Below, in pieces: positions 5,205 through 13,347 of a DNA stretch of 64,000 bases (the stretch's first letter is position 1; each line of letters begins with the position of its first letter). Both the position numbers and the translations under genes were made by a program. This stretch comes from an uncultured Chloroflexia bacterium. GTDB taxonomy: Bacteria; Chloroflexota; Limnocylindria; Limnocylindrales; CSP1-4. Location of the stretch: assembly GCA_963828165.1 (NCBI GenBank), contig CAWHDR010000001.1:1600001-1664000 (forward strand), given 5' to 3'. The notes under the pieces were generated by a model that did not search any database, was not told the DNA's origin, and saw only the letters and a program-made list of their open reading frames with translations.

Positions 5205-6301
5205 TCCCGGTCGCTCGTCCCGACATCGATGACGCCGAGATCGCCGCCGTCACCGAGGTCCTGCGCAGCGGGATGCTGGCCGGAGGCCGCCGGGTCGCGG
5301 AGCTGGAGGAACGATGGGCGGCGTTCATCGGCGTCCGCCACGCGATCGCGGTGAGCAACGGGACCGTTGCCGAGATGTGCATCTTCGCGGGCATGGACCT
5401 GGAGCCCGGCGACGAGGTCATCACCGTCGGCCACACCTTCAATGCGACGGTGTCATCGATCCTGTACGCGGGTGCCACGCCGGTGTTCGTGGACATCGAC
5501 CCCGAGACCTACGACATCGACCCGGACCGGGTGGCCGCGGCCATCACGCCCCGGACGAAGGCCATCTGCCCGGTCCACCTGTTCGGCCTGCCGGCCGACA
5601 TGGACCCGCTCCTGGAGCTCGCCGACCGCCACGGCCTCGCCATCGTCGAGGACGCCTGCCAGGCCCACGGCGCCGAATACCGCGGGCGGCGGGTCGGAAG
5701 CTTCGGGCACGGCGCGTTCAGCCTGTACGGCACCAAGAACATGACGACGGGCGAGGGCGGTCTCATCACGACCGATGACGACGCCCTGGCCGACTGGATC
5801 CGGCTGTACCGCAACCAGGGCATGCGCGAGCGCTACCGCCACGACATCCTGGGCTACAACTTCCGCCTGACCGATGTCGCGGCCGCGATCGGCCTGTGCC
5901 AGCTCGACAAGCTCGAGCGGAACACCGCCCGTCGCCAGGCGATCGCGAAGCGCTACGACGAGGCCCTGGCGGACCTGCCGGTCGTCGTCCCGAGCGTGCC
6001 CGCCGACCGGACGCACGTCTACCACCAGTACACCCTCGACGTCGGGCCCGCACGCGACGCGATCGTGGCCGACCTCGCCGCGGCCGGAGTCTCGACCGGG
6101 ATCTACTACCCGATCCCCGTCCATCGCCAGCCGTACGTGCTGGCGCTCGGCATCCGCGCCGACCTGCCGGTCACGGACCGCGCCGCTGCGCGCAGCCTCT
6201 CGCTGCCGATGTTCCCGGGCCTCACCGGCGACGACCAGACGACCGTGATCGAGGCGGTCCGTGCCGTCGTCGGGCGGCACGCGGCCATCGCCGAACGATG
6301 A
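5201..6301 (+). CDS. DegT/DnrJ/EryC1/StrS sugar aminotransferase (WbpE-like)
   Basis: PVHLFG, EDACQAHGA, FSLYGTKNMTTGEGG, GYNFR; GTGA overlap with upstream stop. Confidence 0.9.
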   Translation: MIPVARPDIDDAEIAAVTEVLRSGMLAGGRRVAELEERWAAFIGVRHAIAVSNGTVAEMCIFAGMDLEPGDEVITVGHTFNATVSSILYAGATPVFVDIDPETYDIDPDRVAAAITPRTKAICPVHLFGLPADMDPLLELADRHGLAIVEDACQAHGAEYRGRRVGSFGHGAFSLYGTKNMTTGEGGLITTDDDALADWIRLYRNQGMRERYRHDILGYNFRLTDVAAAIGLCQLDKLERNTARRQAIAKRYDEALADLPVVVPSVPADRTHVYHQYTLDVGPARDAIVADLAAAGVSTGIYYPIPVHRQPYVLALGIRADLPVTDRAAARSLSLPMFPGLTGDDQTTVIEAVRAVVGRHAAIAER

Positions 6302-7335
6302 GCGGCTGGGAGCCCATCGGCGAGCGCCCGGCGCGAGTCGGGCTGATCGGTCTTGGGGCGATGGGGCGGAATCACCTGCGGCTGCTGAGCGCCCGCGAGG
6401 ACGTCGAGCTCGTGGCGATCTCGGATCCGCTCCCCGAGGCGCTGGAGGCGGCACGCGGGACGACCGATGCCAAGGTCTACGTCGAGCCGCGGGACATGCT
6501 CGGCAACGACGCCCTTGATGCCGTCGTCATCGCCTCGCCGACGACGACCCACCTTGGGCTCGGGCTCGCCGCCGTCGAGCGTGGGGTCGCCGCGCTCATC
6601 GAGAAGCCGCTTGCGGCGACCCCGCAGGAGGCCGACGGCCTGGTCATGGCCTCGGGCGAGACCGGCGTGCCGATCCAGGTCGGCCATGTCGAGCAATTCA
6701 ACCCGGCGGTGCTGGAGCTTGGCCGCCTCCTGGATGACGGCTGGCTCTCGACGGTCTACGCCATCACGAGCCGTCGCGCCGGCCCGTTCCCGGCGCGCAT
6801 CCGCGACGTGGGGGTGACCATCGATCTCGCGACCCACGACGTCGACATCCTGTCGTTCGTCGCGGCCGAGCGGCCGACCCGCGTCTCGGCCGAGACCGCC
6901 CAGCGCGTCCACCAGGACCACGAGGATCTGCTGTTCGGACTCCTGTCGTTTCCCTCGGGTTCGGTCGGGATGCTCCACGTCGACTGGCTGACGCCGGCCA
7001 AGCGCCGGACGCTGACCGTGGTCGGCGAGGAGGGCATGTTCGAGCTCGATTACCTCAGCCAGCGGCTGACCTTCACGCGCTCGACCGATACGACGAACCC
7101 GCACCTGATCCGCGGATATGCCCCGACGTTCGAGGGCGAATCGGTCGAGCTGCCACTTGCGAGCGGGGAGCCGCTGGCCGCCGAGCTGGACGCGTTCTTC
7201 ACCGTCGTTCGAGAGGGCGGTCGCCCGGTCGTCAACGTGGAGGACGGGCGCTGGGCGGTGGTCGTCGCGGATGCCCTGCTGCGCGCGGCGCGCGAGCGCC
7301 GGACCGTCGAGCTCGACGAGGTCCTGGCAACGTGA
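6298..7335 (+). CDS. Gfo/Idh/MocA oxidoreductase (WbpB-like)
   Basis: GLIGLGAMGRNH, IEKPLA, VGHVEQFNPA, DLATHDVD; ATGA overlap. Confidence 0.88.
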   Translation: MSGWEPIGERPARVGLIGLGAMGRNHLRLLSAREDVELVAISDPLPEALEAARGTTDAKVYVEPRDMLGNDALDAVVIASPTTTHLGLGLAAVERGVAALIEKPLAATPQEADGLVMASGETGVPIQVGHVEQFNPAVLELGRLLDDGWLSTVYAITSRRAGPFPARIRDVGVTIDLATHDVDILSFVAAERPTRVSAETAQRVHQDHEDLLFGLLSFPSGSVGMLHVDWLTPAKRRTLTVVGEEGMFELDYLSQRLTFTRSTDTTNPHLIRGYAPTFEGESVELPLASGEPLAAELDAFFTVVREGGRPVVNVEDGRWAVVVADALLRAARERRTVELDEVLAT

Positions 7336-8745
7336 CGATCACCGACCGGCCGTCCAGCACCGCTGACCTCACCGGCGGCTCAATCACGTCCGAGCCGAAC
7401 CCGTGCCGCCACCCGTTCGCGCGGCCCGTGCGGCCGTGGCGCGGTGAACCCGGAACGGCAGGGATCGTGGCGGTGGTCGGGGCGGGGAAGATGGGCCTGC
7501 CGCTCGCCGCGCAATTCGCGTCGCACGGGTGGGACGTCATCGCGGTCGACATCGACGAGGCGGTCGTGGCCGCGATCAACGAGGGTCGCTCGCATGTCGA
7601 CGAGGAGCCCGGCCTCGCGGAGCTCGTGGCGACCGCTCACGGCGACGGCATGCTGCGTGCGACGACGGACGGCGCGGCGGCCGCGCGCGAGGCCGACGTC
7701 GTCGTGCTCATCGTGCCGGTGATGCTGGACGCGGAGTCGCGGCCGGACTACCGCCACATGGATGCCGCCACGGACTCGATCGTGCCGGGCATCCATGCCG
7801 GGTCGCTCGTGATCTACGAGACGACGCTCCCCGTCGGGGACACGCGCGGGCGCTACGCTCCGCGCCTGGAGGCGGCCAGCGGGCTGCGCGCCGACGTCGA
7901 CGGCGACAACGGGTTCCTCTTGGCCTTCTCACCGGAGCGGCTGTACAGCGGTGCCGCACTTCGCAATCTGGCGACCTACCCAAAACTTGTCGGCGGCGTT
8001 GGGCCTGCTTCTCGGGACCGCGCCGCCGCGTTCTACGACAGCGTGCTCGATGCCGAGATCGTGGCCATGTCGTCGGCCGAGGCGGCCGAGTTCTCGAAGC
8101 TTGCCGACACGACGTACCGCGACGTGAACATCGCGCTCGCCAACGAGTTCGCGAACTACGCCGACCGGATCGGCGTCGACCTGACCGAGGTGATCGCCGC
8201 GGCCAACAGCCAGCCCTACAGCCACATCCACCAGCCGGGGATCGGTGTCGGTGGCCACTGCATCCCGGTCTACCCGCACTTCCTGCTCGATCGAGCGCCC
8301 GAGCTGTCGCTCGTGGCCCGAGCCCGCGAAGTCAACGACGGCCAGGTCGACGTGGCGATCGAGGCGCTGAAGGCCGAGCTGGGTTCGCTCGACGGTGTCG
8401 GGGTGCTCGTGCTCGGGCTGACGTACCGCCACGGCGTCAAGGAGCTGGCCTACTCACGGGCGCTGCCCCTGATCGAGCAGCTGCGGGCGGCGGGCGCCCA
8501 GGTGCTCGCCTACGACCCCTTGCTCACCGAAGACGAGATCCGCCAAACCGGCGCCGAACCGTGGACTTGGGGAACGCCGGCACCGGGAGTCCGCGCCGTG
8601 GTCACGCAGACAGCCGACCCGAACTGGCAGCAAATTGGATGCGGGCTGGTTCCCGGAGCTACGTGTCGTCCTGGACGGCCGCAATAGCCTCGGCGGCCTC
8701 GCCCTGCCGGATGGCGTGACCCGCCGCGGTATCGGGAGCTCGTAG
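7332..8745 (+). CDS. Nucleotide-sugar dehydrogenase (WbpA/WecC family), frameshift near 8633
   Basis: VVGAGKMGLP, FSPERL, GVGGHCIPVYP; an extra A at CAAATT shifts the frame, and the other frame continues LDAGWFPELRVVLDGRN..GIGSS* to TAG 8743-8745. Confidence 0.85.
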
Positions 8746-8772
8746 ACGCTCGAGCTGATCGTCCGGCGAGAT

Positions 8773-8784
8773 CACGCATTGCGA
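8773..8784 (+). repeat. Half copy (3' 12 bp) of the 24-bp cassette-boundary repeat
   Basis: CACGCATTGCGA, identical to 11584-11595. Confidence 0.6.
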
Positions 8785-8893
8785 CCAACATGCCTTGTAC
8801 CGTGCAGCGTGCGGATTCGCCCTTTCACCGGTTGACGCCAATTGGTCATCGACCCATGCTCAGGCGCAGGATTCCGCCGAGGGAAGTCAACCG

Positions 8894-9010
8894 ATGGTCA
8901 ATGACAGCGGCGCTTTCGCCGTGCCCGTCTACGAGATCGTCCTGGCTGTGCTCGTGGTGGGGCTGGCACTCGCAATTCTTCGAGTCCTGCGACGCCGGGG
9001 AAGGCGATGA
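8894..9010 (+). CDS. Small single-pass membrane protein (38 aa)
   Basis: MVNDSGAFAVPVYEIVLAVLVVGLALAILRVLRRRGRR: hydrophobic helix plus basic tail; GAGGGA upstream. Confidence 0.55.
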   Translation: MVNDSGAFAVPVYEIVLAVLVVGLALAILRVLRRRGRR

Positions 9011-9101
9011 CCACGACTCCGAGCCGGATGGACTGACAGCCGGCTGCCGTCTCGGGATTCAAACTGAACGCTACCGACACCCTGTGCTCGCTCGACGTCT
9101 A

Positions 9102-9125
9102 GTGTCATTGACGCACGGTTTGCGA
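9102..9125 (+). repeat. 24-bp cassette-boundary repeat, copy 2
   Basis: GTGTCATTGACGCACGGTTTGCGA. Confidence 0.7.
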
Positions 9126-9156
9126 CCACTGGTTGATCGGCTGGGGGTGAGCCGCC

Positions 9157-9954
9157 TCACAGCCGTTCGTTAATAGAGCGTACGAACCGTGCGGCCGCAG
9201 ATCGAGTTGGCGCGTCATGGAAGCCGATCTTGCCTCCGGACCGACGACACCCCAGCGCCCTGTCCAGCAGCCACGTGTGTTGGGGCGCGTGTGCCCGGAG
9301 CCACGCCGCGCCCTCCTGCTTCGAGCACGGTTGGCCCGTCCGGATCGTGCAAATCGCTCGGCATTCTGAAAGCACGGCATACGCGAGCGATCCAGGCGAG
9401 AGCGTGTCAAGGTCCTGGGTCGCGAGCCAGCGGGCATAGGAGGCTACGGCTCCGAGGTATTCGGCGTGGCTAATCGGCGGCACCACGTCGGCCGCCGTCC
9501 TGCCCGCCAGGGTGACGCCCGTCTCCCGGACGAGATACCAGTTCTGCAACCAGTCACTCACCGGCCCAGATAGGTGAAACGGCTCCCCTGGGCTGATGAC
9601 TGCCAGATCGGCCTCCGAGGCACGGAAGCCGCGAAGGTCGGCTGATCCGATGTAAACAATCTCCAGCCTGTTCTCCCACGCTGCATGCCGCCTCACGAAC
9701 TCCCGATGGACGTGGTCGAGGGCCTCGAAGTCGAGCGCGGTCGCGGGGTGCGCGGTGACGGCTACGAGATCGATGTCGCTCACGCCGGGGTCGAACCCAC
9801 CCGACACGGCCGATCCATACGCATACAGGCCGACAAGCTCGTTGCCCAGTGCATCAGTCAGGGCATCGGAGAGCACCGCGACGGGGACGTCGGGGTGGAT
9901 CGCTCCAAGCATCGATGCAGCGTCGGCCACGAACCGGACACGGTCAAGCGCCAT
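9157..9954 (-). CDS. Aminoglycoside nucleotidyltransferase-like protein (NTase domain plus DUF4111-like C-terminus)
   Basis: LVGLYAYGSAVSGGFDPGVSDIDLV (GS..DxD NTase motif), LEIVY, YAVLSECRA..SKQEGAAW; start may be 9954 or 9912. Confidence 0.75.
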   Translation of the reverse strand: MALDRVRFVADAASMLGAIHPDVPVAVLSDALTDALGNELVGLYAYGSAVSGGFDPGVSDIDLVAVTAHPATALDFEALDHVHREFVRRHAAWENRLEIVYIGSADLRGFRASEADLAVISPGEPFHLSGPVSDWLQNWYLVRETGVTLAGRTAADVVPPISHAEYLGAVASYARWLATQDLDTLSPGSLAYAVLSECRAICTIRTGQPCSKQEGAAWLRAHAPQHTWLLDRALGCRRSGGKIGFHDAPTRSAAARFVRSINERL

Positions 9955-10094
9955 AGCCTGCGACCGCGTCGCGTGAGAGGGGGCGTCTGATGTGCCGACG
10001 ACGAATGAGCGAGACGGGCCGGTGGGCGTGTCCCCCACATCCTGAAGTGAAGGCCGGGACATCGAGCATGGGATCGCCCTCGTGATTCCATCGG

Positions 10095-10118
10095 GTGACA
10101 TTCCCGGACACTTTGCGA
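10095..10118 (+). repeat. 24-bp cassette-boundary repeat, copy 3
   Basis: GTGACATTCCCGGACACTTTGCGA. Confidence 0.8.
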
Positions 10119-10144
10119 CGCTGGCGGCACGTACCATCGCGACG

Positions 10145-10447
10145 ATGGAATGGCTTCCGATCCTCGAGTATCGCGAGTTCTACGACTTGCCTCGCCTGAT
10201 TCTGGTGGAGACTGATGACCGCTTTCTCCTGCTTGACTGCCCGTTCGAGGACGGTTTCGACGATTACGCGGCCGACTTCTTCGTCTACCAGTTGGAGTCC
10301 GACCCTCGCCTGAGTTTCGGAGCCGATTGGAGTGGGCTTCCGGCGACCGGCAGACTTCTCGGGCAGGTGTCAGTCAATTCGATCACGTTCGATTCCACTC
10401 GACGTGAGGCGCTCAAATCGCGCGAGCTGGCGACATTGCTCAGGTGA
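10145..10447 (+). CDS. Hypothetical protein (100 aa, acidic/aromatic)
   Basis: MEWLPILEYREFYDLPRLILV..LLLDCPFEDGFDDY; TACCAT -10-like box 7 nt upstream; its TGA stop lies inside repeat copy 4. Confidence 0.7.
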   Translation: MEWLPILEYREFYDLPRLILVETDDRFLLLDCPFEDGFDDYAADFFVYQLESDPRLSFGADWSGLPATGRLLGQVSVNSITFDSTRREALKSRELATLLR

Positions 10448-10467
10448 CATTGGCGGACACTCACTGA
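10444..10467 (+). repeat. 24-bp cassette-boundary repeat, copy 4 (3' end degenerate)
   Basis: GTGACATTGGCGGACACTCACTGA. Confidence 0.65.
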
Positions 10468-10581
10468 CGCTTGCGTGCCCTGCATCGGAAGGTGTCGACG
10501 ATCGCGACCCGATGAGTCAGGCCCGATTCGGACCGGCCGAGCGCGCCGAGGCGTGGACTCCACAACGGCAGGGCCCGTGGC

Positions 10582-10995
10582 TCAGGTCGTGGCGAACAGT
10601 TCCCCGGTGTATGAGCGGCTGACCCAGAATCCGAGCGCTTCGAGGGCGGCCTCCCGCTCGTCGAGCTCTGCAAGGGTGTCCGCTGCCGGGAACAGGACTC
10701 CGTAGATCCCCAAGGCGTCGACGTCGGTCTCGATCCGTCCTCCGAGCGGTTCGATGGCGCGTTCGAGGTCCGTGCGAGATTTGCCGCCGGAAGGCGCGCC
10801 GGTCATGACGATGAGCGTGCCTCGGGCCATGCAATCGCGGTCGGAATCGCGCATGAACTCTGGCGCCGGACATTCCGCGTCGACCACACGGTGAGGCCAG
10901 CTCGTCGGGCCGAGAGTCACCAAGCTGACGGAAAGGACCACGAGCACCGCTAGGAGCAACGGCGACCTGCCACCGTGCGCGGCCTGCGGAGGCAT
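10582..10995 (-). CDS. Hypothetical membrane-anchored or secreted protein
   Basis: N-terminal hydrophobic stretch LLLAVLVVLSVSLVTL, Cys pair, small alpha/beta domain; start uncertain. Confidence 0.55.
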   Translation of the reverse strand: MPPQAAHGGRSPLLLAVLVVLSVSLVTLGPTSWPHRVVDAECPAPEFMRDSDRDCMARGTLIVMTGAPSGGKSRTDLERAIEPLGGRIETDVDALGIYGVLFPAADTLAELDEREAALEALGFWVSRSYTGELFATT

Positions 10996-11154
10996 CCTGT
11001 CTGACGGTCTTCTCGCGTCCGGGAGCGTCTCCGTCCTCCAATCTCGGAGCGCTGCCGTTGAGCATGACTCAAGCAGCCCCCACATGGAACGACCCAACCG
11101 CGTTGTCGGGTACGAGCAGGCACGCGTACACACTAGTTTCTCCATGTTCGTCAG

Positions 11155-11178
11155 GTGACATTTCCGGACGCTTTGCGA
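11155..11178 (+). repeat. 24-bp cassette-boundary repeat, copy 5
   Basis: GTGACATTTCCGGACGCTTTGCGA. Confidence 0.8.
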
Positions 11179-11264
11179 TGCAGCCCGCGTCGTGACTCCT
11201 CGCTGCGACCGGGGCGTATGCTGCCCGGACCGAGAAGGCTTGGGCGTGGCTAACGGGAGGCGAG

Positions 11265-11561
11265 ATGGCCGAGTCGCTTACGGCGTCGCTGAACCGATGG
11301 CGAACCGGCATGCACCCCCGTGCGACTGAGATGCGGATCACCTCCCTTGGTCGCGTTCACCCTCAGCTAGGTGAAGCGCTGCGCCTGGAGATGACCCCCG
11401 CCGGTCCCGGCGGAGAGGACAGCATTCACCTGCAGTACTACATCGCGACGGACCTGGGACCTTGGGCGCTCTGGCTCTCGTGCGCACGAGAGGATGTTGC
11501 CGACTGCGAGGCTGCTCTTCGGGAGCTCACTCCTCCGTTCGCTGAGGAGCGCCAGACCTAG
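11265..11561 (+). CDS. Hypothetical protein (98 aa)
   Basis: GGGAGG RBS upstream of ATG; protein-like composition. Confidence 0.6.
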   Translation: MAESLTASLNRWRTGMHPRATEMRITSLGRVHPQLGEALRLEMTPAGPGGEDSIHLQYYIATDLGPWALWLSCAREDVADCEAALRELTPPFAEERQT

Positions 11562-11571
11562 CCCGCAGCGA

Positions 11572-11595
11572 GTGACATTCCCGCACGCATTGCGA
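11572..11595 (+). repeat. 24-bp cassette-boundary repeat, copy 6
   Basis: GTGACATTCCCGCACGCATTGCGA. Confidence 0.8.
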
Positions 11596-11677
11596 GATCG
11601 CCAGCCTGTAGCCCAAAGGTGATGCCGATAGCGGCACGGGGCCACGCGGAGCCCGCTCGCGTCAGTACGCTACACGC

Positions 11678-12556
11678 ATGGAGTCCGAGGAAGCCTGGCT
11701 GACCGAGACGCTGTACGACGACGTTCGGATGTCGATCAAGGTGGATCGGGTGCTGTTCGACAGCCAGACCGGGCATCAGCATCTCGTCGTCGCGGAAAGC
11801 GAGCGATTCGGGCGGATGTTCACGCTCGATGGCGTCACGCAGCTGACGATGGCCGACGAGTTCGTCTACCACGAGATGCTGGCGCACGTGCCGATTCTTG
11901 CCCACGGCGCGGCGCGCGACATCGGGATCGTCGGGGGTGGTGATGGCGGCCTCGTCGAGGAGGTCCTCAAGCATTCGTCGGTCGAGCACGTGACGATCGC
12001 CGAGCTCGACGCCGGCGTCATCGACTTCGCCCGAACCTACCTCCCGGACCTCAGCCACGGGGCGTTCGACGATCCTCGCGTGGAGATCGTCCTTGGTGAC
12101 GGGGCCGACTTCGTCGCGACGACCGACCAGCGGTTCGACGCCCTCGTGGTCGACTCGACCGACCCGATCGGTCCGGGCGCGGCCCTGTTCAGCCTCGACT
12201 TCTACACGAACTGCAAGCGCGTGCTGCGGCCGGGCGGCGTGCTCGTGACCCAGAACGGCGTCCCGTTCTTCCAGCCCGAGGAGCTCGAGTCATCGATGCG
12301 CTTCTTCGGCGGTCTGTTCGCCGACGCGACCTGCTACCTCGGGGTGGTGCCGACCTACGTCGGCGGGTTCATGGCCTTCGGTTGGGGCACGGATGACGTC
12401 GCGCTCCGGACCGTGCCGGTCGACATGATCCGGGAGCGGTTCGATGCGGCGGGCCTCGACACCCGTTACTACACGCCCGAGGTCCACCGGGCGAGCTTCG
12501 CCTTGCCGAGGTTCATCGGCGACATCGTGGAGCGAGGCCGCGGGTTCGGCGCCTGA
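11678..12556 (+). CDS. speE: Polyamine aminopropyltransferase (spermidine synthase)
   Basis: LDGVTQLT..DEFVYHEMLAHVP, IVGGGDGG, DSTDPIGPG, YYTPEVHRASFALP. Confidence 0.92.
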   Translation: MESEEAWLTETLYDDVRMSIKVDRVLFDSQTGHQHLVVAESERFGRMFTLDGVTQLTMADEFVYHEMLAHVPILAHGAARDIGIVGGGDGGLVEEVLKHSSVEHVTIAELDAGVIDFARTYLPDLSHGAFDDPRVEIVLGDGADFVATTDQRFDALVVDSTDPIGPGAALFSLDFYTNCKRVLRPGGVLVTQNGVPFFQPEELESSMRFFGGLFADATCYLGVVPTYVGGFMAFGWGTDDVALRTVPVDMIRERFDAAGLDTRYYTPEVHRASFALPRFIGDIVERGRGFGA

Positions 12557-13300
12557 TCAGCGTCGGCTGAGCCAGTCGTCCAGACGCGTCGGGGCGATGC
12601 GGGCGTCCGGTCCCGGGGTCAGGGTCCGATCGTCGAGGTGGGCGCCGAAATACGGCACGGTGTCGTCGGTGACGACCGGACGCGGGTCGCCGGCCGCGGA
12701 CAGGACCCGCCGAACCAGCTCGTCCAACCCGATCGCCTCGGGGCCAGCCACCTCAACCGTGCCGTCGATCGGCGATCCCTCGACGACGTCCGCCACGGCG
12801 ACGGCCAGGTCGCTGACCGCGATGGGCTGGAGGTTGGCCGACGGGAGTCGCACGGTGCCGTCGGTCGCGGCGGAGTCGGCGATCCCGCCGAGGAACTCGA
12901 AGAACTGGGTGGCCCGGATGATGGTGTACGGGACGCCGCCGTCCGCCACGAGGCGTTCCTGCGCGACCTTGGCCCGCATGTAGCCGCTGTCGGGCGCGCG
13001 ATCCGCACCGACGATCGACAGCACCACGTGGTGCTTGGTGCCCGCCTCGCGCTCGGCCGCCAGCAGGGTGCCGGTCGAGGTCTGGAAGAACTCGAGCACC
13101 GCGGCCTCCTCGAACGATGGCGCGTTGGAGACGTCGACGACGATCTCCGCGCCCGCCAGGCCTTCGGCCACGCCAGCACCGGAGATGGTGTCAAAGCCTG
13201 TGCTCGGTGCCGCCGCCACCGCTTCGTGCCCTCGGCGTTCTAGTTCGGCCACCACCTGCGAGCCGAGTCGCCCGGTCCCACCCACGACCACGACCTTCAT
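12557..13300 (-). CDS. Atypical SDR / NmrA-like NAD(P)H-binding protein
   Basis: MKVVVVGGTGRLG, LSIVGADR, YMRAKVAQE, RATQFFEF. Confidence 0.85.
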   Translation of the reverse strand: MKVVVVGGTGRLGSQVVAELERRGHEAVAAAPSTGFDTISGAGVAEGLAGAEIVVDVSNAPSFEEAAVLEFFQTSTGTLLAAEREAGTKHHVVLSIVGADRAPDSGYMRAKVAQERLVADGGVPYTIIRATQFFEFLGGIADSAATDGTVRLPSANLQPIAVSDLAVAVADVVEGSPIDGTVEVAGPEAIGLDELVRRVLSAAGDPRPVVTDDTVPYFGAHLDDRTLTPGPDARIAPTRLDDWLSRR

Positions 13301-13347
13301 TCGCGTTCCCCTCTGCTTCGCCGGGCTCATCGAGGGGAGAATGCTAT

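Follow-up and report, generated by a model that had tools for sequence, protein, structure and literature searches.

A candidate gene-cassette array bounded by short direct repeats in an uncultured Limnocylindria bacterium

The window analysed here is a 64-kb stretch of DNA from an uncultured Chloroflexia bacterium of the Limnocylindria (assembly GCA_963828165.1; C1:1600001-1664000 of the genome, which is called G000 below), and the subject of this text is a block at 8736-11643 of this window, in which five single-gene intervals are separated by copies of one short motif between a dehydrogenase gene and the spermidine synthase gene speE. The assembly of G000 comprises 3.31 Mb in 6 contigs with 70% guanine plus cytosine (GC) and is 87.7% complete; other G numbers denote the genomes compared, L numbers loci or contigs, and C1 and C5 contigs of G000. 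We consider it probable, with some reserve, that the block is one of the five arrays that a lineage-specific gene-cassette system of soil Limnocylindria forms in this genome; this system would recombine within the core of its site by means of a trans-acting enzyme. The block and its flanks, with their open reading frames (ORFs), are arranged as follows.

7332-8745, + strand: UDP-glucose/GDP-mannose dehydrogenase family gene, the left flank (Pfam PF03721, PF00984, PF03720), which ends with TAG at 8743-8745
8736-8765, + strand: left end of the inserted block, 30 nt without counterpart in the congeners G026 and G074 by junction comparison
8766-8784, + strand: array start site of 19 nt, GCGAGATCACGCATTGCGA, equal to the full site minus positions 8-12
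8785-9125, + strand: cassette 1, with ORF 8795-9010 and the 3' site at 9102-9125
9126-10118, - strand: cassette 2, an AadA-type nucleotidyltransferase, ORF 9157-9954 or extending to 10137, with the 3' site (in the sense of the array) at 10095-10118
10119-10467, + strand: cassette 3, with a 100-residue ORF at 10145-10447 and the 3' site at 10444-10467
10468-11178, - strand: cassette 4 (called X), a 137-residue protein with an N-terminal hydrophobic segment, ORF 10582-10995, with the 3' site at 11155-11178
11179-11595, + strand: cassette 5, with a 98-residue ORF at 11265-11561 and the 3' site at 11572-11595, which is the last site of the array
11596-11643, + strand: the last 48 nt of the inserted block, which hold a -10-like TAGCCC and then GTG, followed by native speE upstream sequence (junction comparison with G026)
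11678-12556, + strand: spermidine synthase gene speE, the right flank (Pfam PF01564, PF17284)

The motif lies on the + strand throughout, at 8773 (half a copy), 9102, 10095, 10444, 11155 and 11572, exactly as a preliminary description of this DNA had placed it, and a mismatch-tolerant pattern search found no further copy in the remainder of the window, in agreement with the earlier remark that none had been seen there. At up to three mismatches the best copy has 3 matches in the window against 0.00 expected (any match in 0 of 100 shuffles), and at up to two mismatches the degenerate pattern GTGWCATTNNCGNACNNNNTGCGA has 4 against 0.03 expected, a number that 0 of 100 shuffles reached; the copy at 10444, with its deviant 3' end ...CTCACTGA, passes at three mismatches only. 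The ORF orientations +,-,+,-,+ across the five intervals were reproduced, and so were the stop codon inside a repeat (the TGA of ORF 10145-10447 forms positions 2-4 of the site at 10444-10467) and the identical 12-mer bracketing the array, CACGCATTGCGA, which stands at 8773-8784 and 11584-11595. Two details of that description needed correction: the 'half copy' at 8773 is correctly positioned but is the 3' part of the 19-nt short form at 8766-8784, which recurs at other array starts, and the 24-bp repeat is present but its conserved core is longer, at 28 nt (-4 to +24).

On the dehydrogenase side, the DNA similarity to G026 and G074 extends to 8735, and the block 8736-11643 has no counterpart at the same site in either congener. 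There, the dehydrogenase gene and speE nearly abut, with a site-free gap of 20 nt in G074 and 30 nt in G026 and flanks that share 85-90% identity with the window; the block is therefore extra DNA in G000, and gain or loss at this locus, which the preliminary description had suspected, is borne out. In G026 an array is found directly downstream of speE instead. A second informative locus lies downstream of DnaB, where the flanks of L016 (G026) and L027 (a contig of a metagenome-assembled genome, MAG) are 96% identical and enclose arrays of 3.3 kb with 6 sites and 4.6 kb with 9 sites, respectively, which have zero cassettes in common. The similarity on the left stops directly past an identical 19-nt short site and starts again on the right at the last full site, which differs between the two at positions 9, 10, 13 and 16 and is the same from position 17 on. 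The flank of this locus is present in 92 of the 101 genomes of the genus, most of the congeners being without an array: in G074 the flanks adjoin each other directly, in G307, G312, G157 and G305 they are separated by 52-95 nt, and nine other intergenic stretches downstream of DnaB hold no site, save one chance-like match with 3 mismatches in G029. Downstream of a PPDK-like gene, the start site is present in G000 and G001, and also in G074, G066 and G015, that is, in 3 of the 16 further genomes examined. In G030 the same locus (L092, C1:716100-716700) has a relative of cassette 5, with 81% DNA identity, between two decayed sites, and looks like a fossilised cassette.

In the whole of G000 there are 34 matches to the motif at up to two mismatches (27 forward and 7 reverse; 0 for the reversed control), and at up to three mismatches 42 of the 49 matches fall in five clusters, each with all its sites on one strand, while the remaining 7 are scattered singles with 3 mismatches each. 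This is the clustering in arrays, and not the scatter of a regulator site, that the cassette interpretation of the preliminary description called for. The five arrays are:

Array A: C1:585583-591181
Array B: C1:965242-971782, reverse strand
Array C: the array of the window
Array D: C1:1778062-1778766
Array E: C5:13384-21837

All five have a GC content of 0.639-0.647, against 0.682-0.714 in the 5 kb on either side. Across the array loci of G000 and other genomes, the flanks are housekeeping genes that differ from locus to locus (dehydrogenase, PPDK-like, DnaB, EthD-like and decarboxylase genes). A 230-residue ORF without a Pfam family follows the last site of array E (L012:17923-18612) and recurs, with 77-81% protein identity, after the last site of the speE-side array of G026 (L015:7140-7788), downstream of which lies a homologue of the flank of array B. 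The arrays also coincide with synteny breaks between G000 and G026.

Across 118 distinct sites the conserved core from -4 to +24 reads TCnGGTGWCATTnnCGnACrCTTTGCGA, with weaker conservation beyond it (+32 G in 88, +38 T in 80 and +41 C in 79 of the 118). The short start form has the consensus G.GA..T.ACRC.TTGCGA, which is the full site without positions 8-12; in 513 kb, all 10 of its matches at up to one mismatch and 17 of 22 at up to two are at array starts, against 0 and 1 for the reversed pattern. In G000, arrays B and D possess a start site, and array A has only a relic with 3 mismatches. The sites had been called 'scars' of recombination or insertion, which is too weak a term for a grammar of two types, a 19-nt start site and a 28-nt cassette-end site, with a fixed spacing to a -10-like element. 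No folding signal was found in ten 104-nt stretches treated as single-stranded DNA (z from -1.41 to +2.43, with 0 of 10 at -2 or below); inspection of the sequences revealed neither a conserved inverted partner upstream of the site nor RYYYAAC/GTTRRRY cores, and the alignment of the 118 sites no dyad symmetry in the site arms. An internal hairpin GTGTC-N7-GACAC was considered and rejected: position 4 varies (A in 78 and T in 40 of the 118) without a compensating change at position 14, which is A in 118 of 118, so the hairpin gains no support.

The set of 206 non-redundant cassettes has a median length of 546 nt (190-2085 nt). A forward ORF covers at least 60% of the cassette in 118 of the 206; the start codon of these ORFs peaks 25-27 nt past the site (32 of 118), and in 51 of the 118 the stop codon falls inside the next site, 34 of them using TGA at positions 2-4 and 11 using positions 18-20. 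Reverse-strand genes, as shown by homology for at least two cassettes of the window, also occur, and the sites stay co-oriented beside them. Moreover, TAnnnT begins 13 nt past the site in 30 of 117 cases and 11-13 nt past it in 38 of 117, with an upstream control of about 0.35 per offset, and 35 of the 117 sites have a TAnnnT at offset 10-14 with a start codon 4-9 nt beyond it. From this arrangement we infer a leaderless promoter layout, a type of promoter known from high-GC Gram-positive-type bacteria. TTGCGA was rejected as a -35 hexamer; its spacing to TAnnnT is 12-13 nt and not 16-18 nt, and the geometry is therefore not that of a standard sigma-70 promoter.

Cassettes behave as modules within and between genomes. 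Copies of cassette 4 (X) are present in arrays B and E of G000 with 85-91% identity from site to site, and arrays A and B share another cassette at 73% identity. The break points could be mapped in three clean pairs. L049 and L059 have one cassette that is 99.9% identical over 704 nt, preceded by the 19-nt start site in one and by the full site of another cassette in the other; these upstream sites differ at positions 13, 16 and 18, and the identity begins at TTGCGA. Another cassette, 99.7-100% identical together with its site, has either of two unlike cassettes downstream of it, the similarity ending exactly past GCGA; two separate contigs show each of the two junctions (L039/L072 and L082/L070), an argument against assembly chimeras. 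In addition, contigs of sequencing run X2 hold the nucleotidyltransferase cassette of the window with 7 differing letters in 514 nt, and with 10 differing letters and 2 gaps in 313 nt, and match the window only over 9122-10118, a span that starts at position 21 of one site and closes with the final base of the following site. In cassettes found in two contexts, the right-hand site is kept (23 of 24 positions between L017 and L031, 20-21 of 24 among the copies of X) and the left-hand site is more variable (14-18 of 24 positions). Judging from these three pairs, which offer few informative positions, the left part of a site would belong to the cassette upstream and the exchange would take place within positions 19-24. 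The shuffling that the preliminary description had envisaged is thus present: modules are gained, lost and moved between arrays, loci and genomes, with the sites as their bounds. No RNA run turned up among the matching sequencing runs; four DNA runs (0.13 to 0.00 of the sampled words) gave sparse contigs, no joints and no circular junctions, and are too sparse to bear on expression or excision.

The system appears to be specific to one lineage. At up to one mismatch, 42 of the 251 genomes of the order have matches, and the reversed controls have 0 in all 251 (these tallies include the unpublished G251 and G271, on which none of the particular statements made here depends); the 42 are G000, 38 of the 208 others of the same family and 3 of the 42 of a small-genome sister family, whose matches are single copies of one recurring sequence. 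The 3' ends of the sites are genus-specific, being ...CTTTGCGA in g1 and g9 and ...CTGAGCGA or ...CCAAGCGA in g7, and because of this genus specificity the site variants suggest that a recognition partner is inherited within each lineage. An example of a g7 array is G243:C69:16625-20831. Array A of G000 also holds a run of site variants of the CTGAGCGA/CCAAGCGA type, at C1:587500-589103. An exact scan of one genome per species returned 14 loci in 11 assemblies, all of them Chloroflexia, Chloroflexota or Limnocylindria. Among soil metagenome contigs, 55 carry 175 sites, and in 52 of the 55 all sites are on one strand. The viral contig collection has 0 motif matches, and no Rfam family was matched at E up to 1 in 8000-12500.

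The contents of the five cassettes of the window are diverse. Cassette 1 has a weak coding call, a 38-residue hydrophobic peptide from the ATG at 8894 within ORF 8795-9010, which matches no Pfam family, and TACCGT stands 13 nt past the start site. The protein of cassette 2 matches AadA_C (2.9e-8) and NTP_transf_2 (3.9e-5) in Pfam. In cassette 3, TACCAT is followed after 7 nt by the ATG at 10145; the protein has only 6 relatives among 5.8 billion proteins, and its structure model is confident (predicted local distance difference test score 86.8) and has no Foldseek match in the PDB at E up to 0.001. Relatives of the cassette 5 ORF, with 74-81% DNA identity, occur in varied contexts in no fewer than nine other genomes of the genus; in G007 such a relative adjoins a homologue of the window gene at 12560-13330, and the ORF may represent a resident gene family captured into cassettes. 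Single-base indels seem to be present in the assembly, namely an apparent 1-nt indel that shifts the frame of the dehydrogenase gene near 8610-8640 (changing the frame of its 3' part, 8610-8745) and a DUF885 gene split into three ORFs (L009:1375-3659), and the cassette ORF calls may be affected by indels of the same kind.

In the wider set, four Pfam scans assigned immunity families to some cassette ORFs: Imm26 (1.8e-12), Imm1 (1.4e-11), SMI1_KNR4/SUKH (1.8e-6), SUFU (9.7e-19), Barstar (1.1e-16) and DUF4279 (3.6e-16), with a sub-threshold match to Imm32. PMC9424270 names DUF4279 FdL-Imm5, and PMC13304343 counts it as an immunity family. The families DUF6869, DUF6188, DUF4265, DUF4304 and DUF7674 recur in the cassettes, and the enzymes and domains encoded include an AadA-type nucleotidyltransferase, APH-type kinases, glyoxalase-like, luciferase-like monooxygenase and SnoaL-like proteins, an esterase and a SIR2-like domain. 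On these family assignments, the idea of an orphan immunity stockpile would fit a recognisable minority of the cassettes. Relatives of aminoglycoside-modifying enzymes of AadA and APH type are encoded at 9157-9954 (-) of the window and at L028:5209-7136, L056:1198-2061 and L079:1361-2260; by predicted activity they belong to the class of cargo found in clinical integrons, their host being an uncultured soil bacterium.

The preliminary description assumed a recombinase encoded elsewhere, and in Pfam scans neither recombinase nor transposase families turned up among the 108 ORFs in and around arrays A and B, in the surroundings of arrays C and D, or in 108 flank ORFs of 15 other loci. The sole recombinase near an array is a frameshifted serine recombinase left of array E. 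In agreement with this, tblastn searches with XerC, XerD, the third integrase, the serine recombinase and Rep of G000 gave nothing in about 469 kb of array-bearing loci. The tyrosine recombinases (PF00589) of G000 are at three loci, XerD next to recN, XerC next to topA and a phage-type integrase at C1:454 kb; all three lie away from the arrays. Exactly two PF00589 matches each are present in the array-bearing G121, G127, G226 and G265 (90-94% complete), and the two PF00589 genes of G026 are the Xer pair only; XerC/XerD are the only canonical site-specific recombinases common to all the array-bearing genomes examined. IS110, Y1 (IS200/IS605) and rve transposases were not found in G000 at its 87.7% completeness. 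The element left of array E (L012:5929-8527, C5:9929-12527) encodes a large serine recombinase whose C-terminal part is in another frame (5929-7305 and 7215-7631) and, on the reverse strand, a HUH Rep (PF23343, 9.2e-15). The pair was rejected as machinery of the arrays: the frame is broken, a serine recombinase is missing from G026 and G265, and the Rep family occurs in 1 of 5 array genomes. Searches with dif-like patterns found no canonical dif in G000, and no resemblance of the motif to a dif consensus was found. An AT-rich dif-like match at C1:2888998 was also rejected, since the cumulative GC-skew minimum, where it is located, marks the origin side and not the terminus. Since the bins of MAGs can miss plasmids, the enzyme may be absent from the bins, for example because it is plasmid-borne.

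In the reading that we favour, an array would consist of a 19-nt short start site followed by cassettes of about 0.2-2 kb, each ending in a full 28-nt site. Recombination in the terminal bases of the site (TTGCGA, probably GCGA) would insert and delete cassettes and transfer them from one array or genome to another, and because the exchange would occur there, the left part of the site would travel with the upstream cassette, in the manner of attC in integrons. The recombining enzyme is predicted to be a trans-acting factor that is not linked to the arrays. Most cassettes would come with a -10 element of their own, placed a few bases ahead of a start codon in a predicted leaderless arrangement, and because they carry both we propose that they are expressed wherever they are placed. 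Orphan immunity proteins of polymorphic toxin systems would make up most of the cargo that can be recognised, alongside small modifying or detoxifying enzymes, and the likely role would be a stockpile of defences against antagonism by neighbouring bacteria. Several observations weigh against this reading. The spacing to the -10-like element is fixed, so that promoter function alone could conserve the site. A start site lies within 1.5 kb in only 9 of the 23 arrays with at least 1.5 kb visible upstream, so that the start-site rule may not be general, and the simple forward-ORF layout is missing in 88 of the 206 cassettes. Both in the window and downstream of DnaB, the inserted block brings in the start site along with 30-70 nt of unrelated leader; since start site and leader belong to the inserted block, the reading leaves the founding of an array without explanation. 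Furthermore, the majority of the cassette ORFs have no Pfam family, no candidate enzyme was found in the array flanks or array loci, no excised or circular form of a cassette was seen in the sparse read data, and the crossover is mapped from only three clean pairs in a site with few variable positions. The data themselves are MAGs and metagenome contigs, and the assembly of G000 has indel errors.

The main rival holds that the site is a shared promoter or operator and that cassettes are exchanged, with no dedicated recombinase, through ordinary homologous recombination or gene conversion, whether among arrays or involving incoming DNA, the homology being provided by the sites, neighbouring cassettes or flanks. 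We regard it as unlikely, yet as the alternative to be taken most seriously, since no recombinase is linked to or common to the arrays, the -10-like element is fixed at 13 nt from the site, the array of the window arrived with an extra leader and tail as it would via recombination in the flanks, and the arrays coincide with the synteny breaks between G000 and G026. It does not readily account for sites that are strictly co-oriented even beside reversed genes, for a distinct 19-nt form confined to array starts, for the fact that all mapped breaks fall within the final bases of a 24-28-nt site, or for arrays with 96%-identical flanks and no cassette in common; moreover, 24-28 nt is very short for RecA-dependent exchange. 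A role of housekeeping XerC/XerD as the recombinase, with arrays as Xer-mobilised modules like pdif modules or integrative mobile elements exploiting Xer (IMEX), appears improbable. That pair comprises the sole tyrosine recombinases in G026, G121, G127, G226 and G265, of which G026 and G265 are also without serine recombinases, and the 28-nt core has the length of a dif site. However, an 11-6-11 split would put the crossover at 7/8 or 13/14, whereas the sites of L049 and L059 still differ at 16 and 18 beside a 99.9%-identical cassette; the arms have no dyad symmetry, the sites are direct and not alternating and lie at five loci instead of one terminus site, the start site lacks exactly the would-be central region, and no likeness to a dif consensus was found.

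Three further explanations have far smaller chances. Arrays built by 3'-end displacement, in which the repeats would be displaced tails of flanking genes after successive homologous additions, as for type VI secretion system immunity genes of Vibrio and Rhs or contact-dependent inhibition modules, would resemble the present ones as integrase-free stacks of immunity-type genes between housekeeping genes, such as an excerpt of PMC5361080 describes; the same site at loci with unrelated flank genes, and flank genes without the motif at empty sites, make this very improbable. Integron arrays without an integrase (clusters of attC sites lacking integron-integrases, CALINs), with the motif as part of attC, deserve still less weight, even though the layout is integron-like in its co-oriented sites at cassette 3' ends, its different first site and some reversed genes: the 28-nt element has no upstream inverted partner and no RYYYAAC/GTTRRRY cores, 0 of 10 folds reach z of -2 or below, and the three tyrosine recombinases of G000 (XerD, XerC and the phage-type integrase) are all away from the arrays. 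The non-integron interpretation of the preliminary description is upheld by sites that do not fold like attC and by the lack of intI beside the arrays. Equally remote is a static regulon, in which the motif would be an operator before resident genes and nothing would be mobile. The fixed position of the motif relative to the -10-like element would suit it, but 42 copies are in arrays and outside them there are only 7 scattered singles with 3 mismatches, the array is missing at the same site in congeners, cassettes are common to different arrays, loci and genomes, and some sites lie between convergent gene ends. Clustered regularly interspaced short palindromic repeats (CRISPR), repetitive extragenic palindromes and bacterial interspersed mosaic elements (REP/BIME) and miniature inverted-repeat transposable elements (MITEs) were rejected on the gene-holding intervals of 190-2085 nt, the lack of dispersed copies and of a Y1 transposase, and the absence of an Rfam match.

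The textbook example of a system that stockpiles and shuffles single genes is the integron, and to our knowledge the rAID-1 (recombinase-associated acquired interbacterial defence) clusters are the only look-alikes of integrons that have been described. The rAID-1 system of Bacteroidales is the closest counterpart of the arrays reported here. It is defined by a gene for a XerD-like tyrosine recombinase at the 5' end of the cluster and has a conserved intergenic motif 'reminiscent of integrons'. The two are alike in their short genes, low GC (here 0.64 against 0.68-0.71) and conserved intergenic motif, the motifs being likened by description and not by sequence, and in content that differs between strains; orphan immunity cargo including SUKH may be shared as far as the present cassettes can be recognised, and the genes are only partly co-oriented here (118 of 206 with the forward-ORF layout). 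They differ in that a XerD-like recombinase is linked to rAID-1 and none to the arrays of Chloroflexota, in which reverse-strand genes occur, a 19-nt start site is present and several arrays per genome lie between housekeeping genes, in another phylum and habitat. With integrons (Cury et al. 2016, PMC4889954) the arrays share, in layout only and not in sequence, a distinct first site, a cassette site at the 3' end and a crossover at the end of the site, whereby the site goes along with the upstream cassette, and also stops within sites, fast cassette turnover and a minority of reversed genes. Yet no integron integrase is found here, cassettes have a promoter-like signature of their own where integrons rely on the Pc promoter, and the five arrays lie at unrelated chromosomal loci. 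The pdif modules of Acinetobacter plasmids and the IMEX arrays at dif have 28-nt sites composed of a XerC arm, a 6-nt centre and a XerD arm, partly dyad-symmetric and in alternating orientation, with exchange at the borders of the centre. Short 28-nt sites, the lack of a linked dedicated recombinase and the availability of host XerC/XerD are common ground, but the present sites are direct and not at the terminus, without dyad arms and with the break outside the would-be central region; the claim that they are not pdif sites thus agrees with all sites being co-oriented. Polyimmunity loci were reportedly described by Zhang, Iyer, Aravind and colleagues in 2012. Like these loci and the displacement arrays (an excerpt of PMC5361080), the present arrays include tandem stockpiles of immunity genes of unrelated families without cognate toxins, but here every unit is bounded by one specific site, which is shared by all loci and does not stem from an adjacent gene. 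The attC sites of integrons are imperfect palindromes of 57-141 nt with R''/L''-L'/R' boxes, which fold as single strands, in contrast to the 28-nt sites without a folding signal.

Literature searches, including PMC13212565 on this lineage, found no prior description for Chloroflexota. Tentatively, and with rather less confidence than in the existence of a cassette system as such, we suggest that the arrays could be a third gene-cassette platform beside integrons and rAID, with a two-site grammar, a crossover in TTGCGA, an unlinked enzyme and several self-expressed arrays per chromosome, widespread in soil Limnocylindria. As part of this suggestion, and just as tentatively, the unlinked enzyme might be a repurposed housekeeping protein or a recombinase of an undescribed family, and the platform would be categorically new if the enzyme proves novel. 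The arrays follow the logic of integrons and rAID-1 in an abundant uncultured soil phylum, with no linked recombinase. The simple, sharply defined site and the natural 'before and after' junctions make the recognising protein testable, as well as whether soil bacteria pool immunity genes against the toxins of their neighbours as gut Bacteroidales do. By means of the sites, hundreds of small, mostly unknown accessory genes could also be retrieved from soil metagenomes, as with the 206 non-redundant cassettes collected here.

As a minor observation on the genome, the 3-kb windows of lowest GC in G000 (0.57-0.61) are at C1:2336001-2340000 and C1:2882001-2887000, the second of which is at the cumulative GC-skew minimum.

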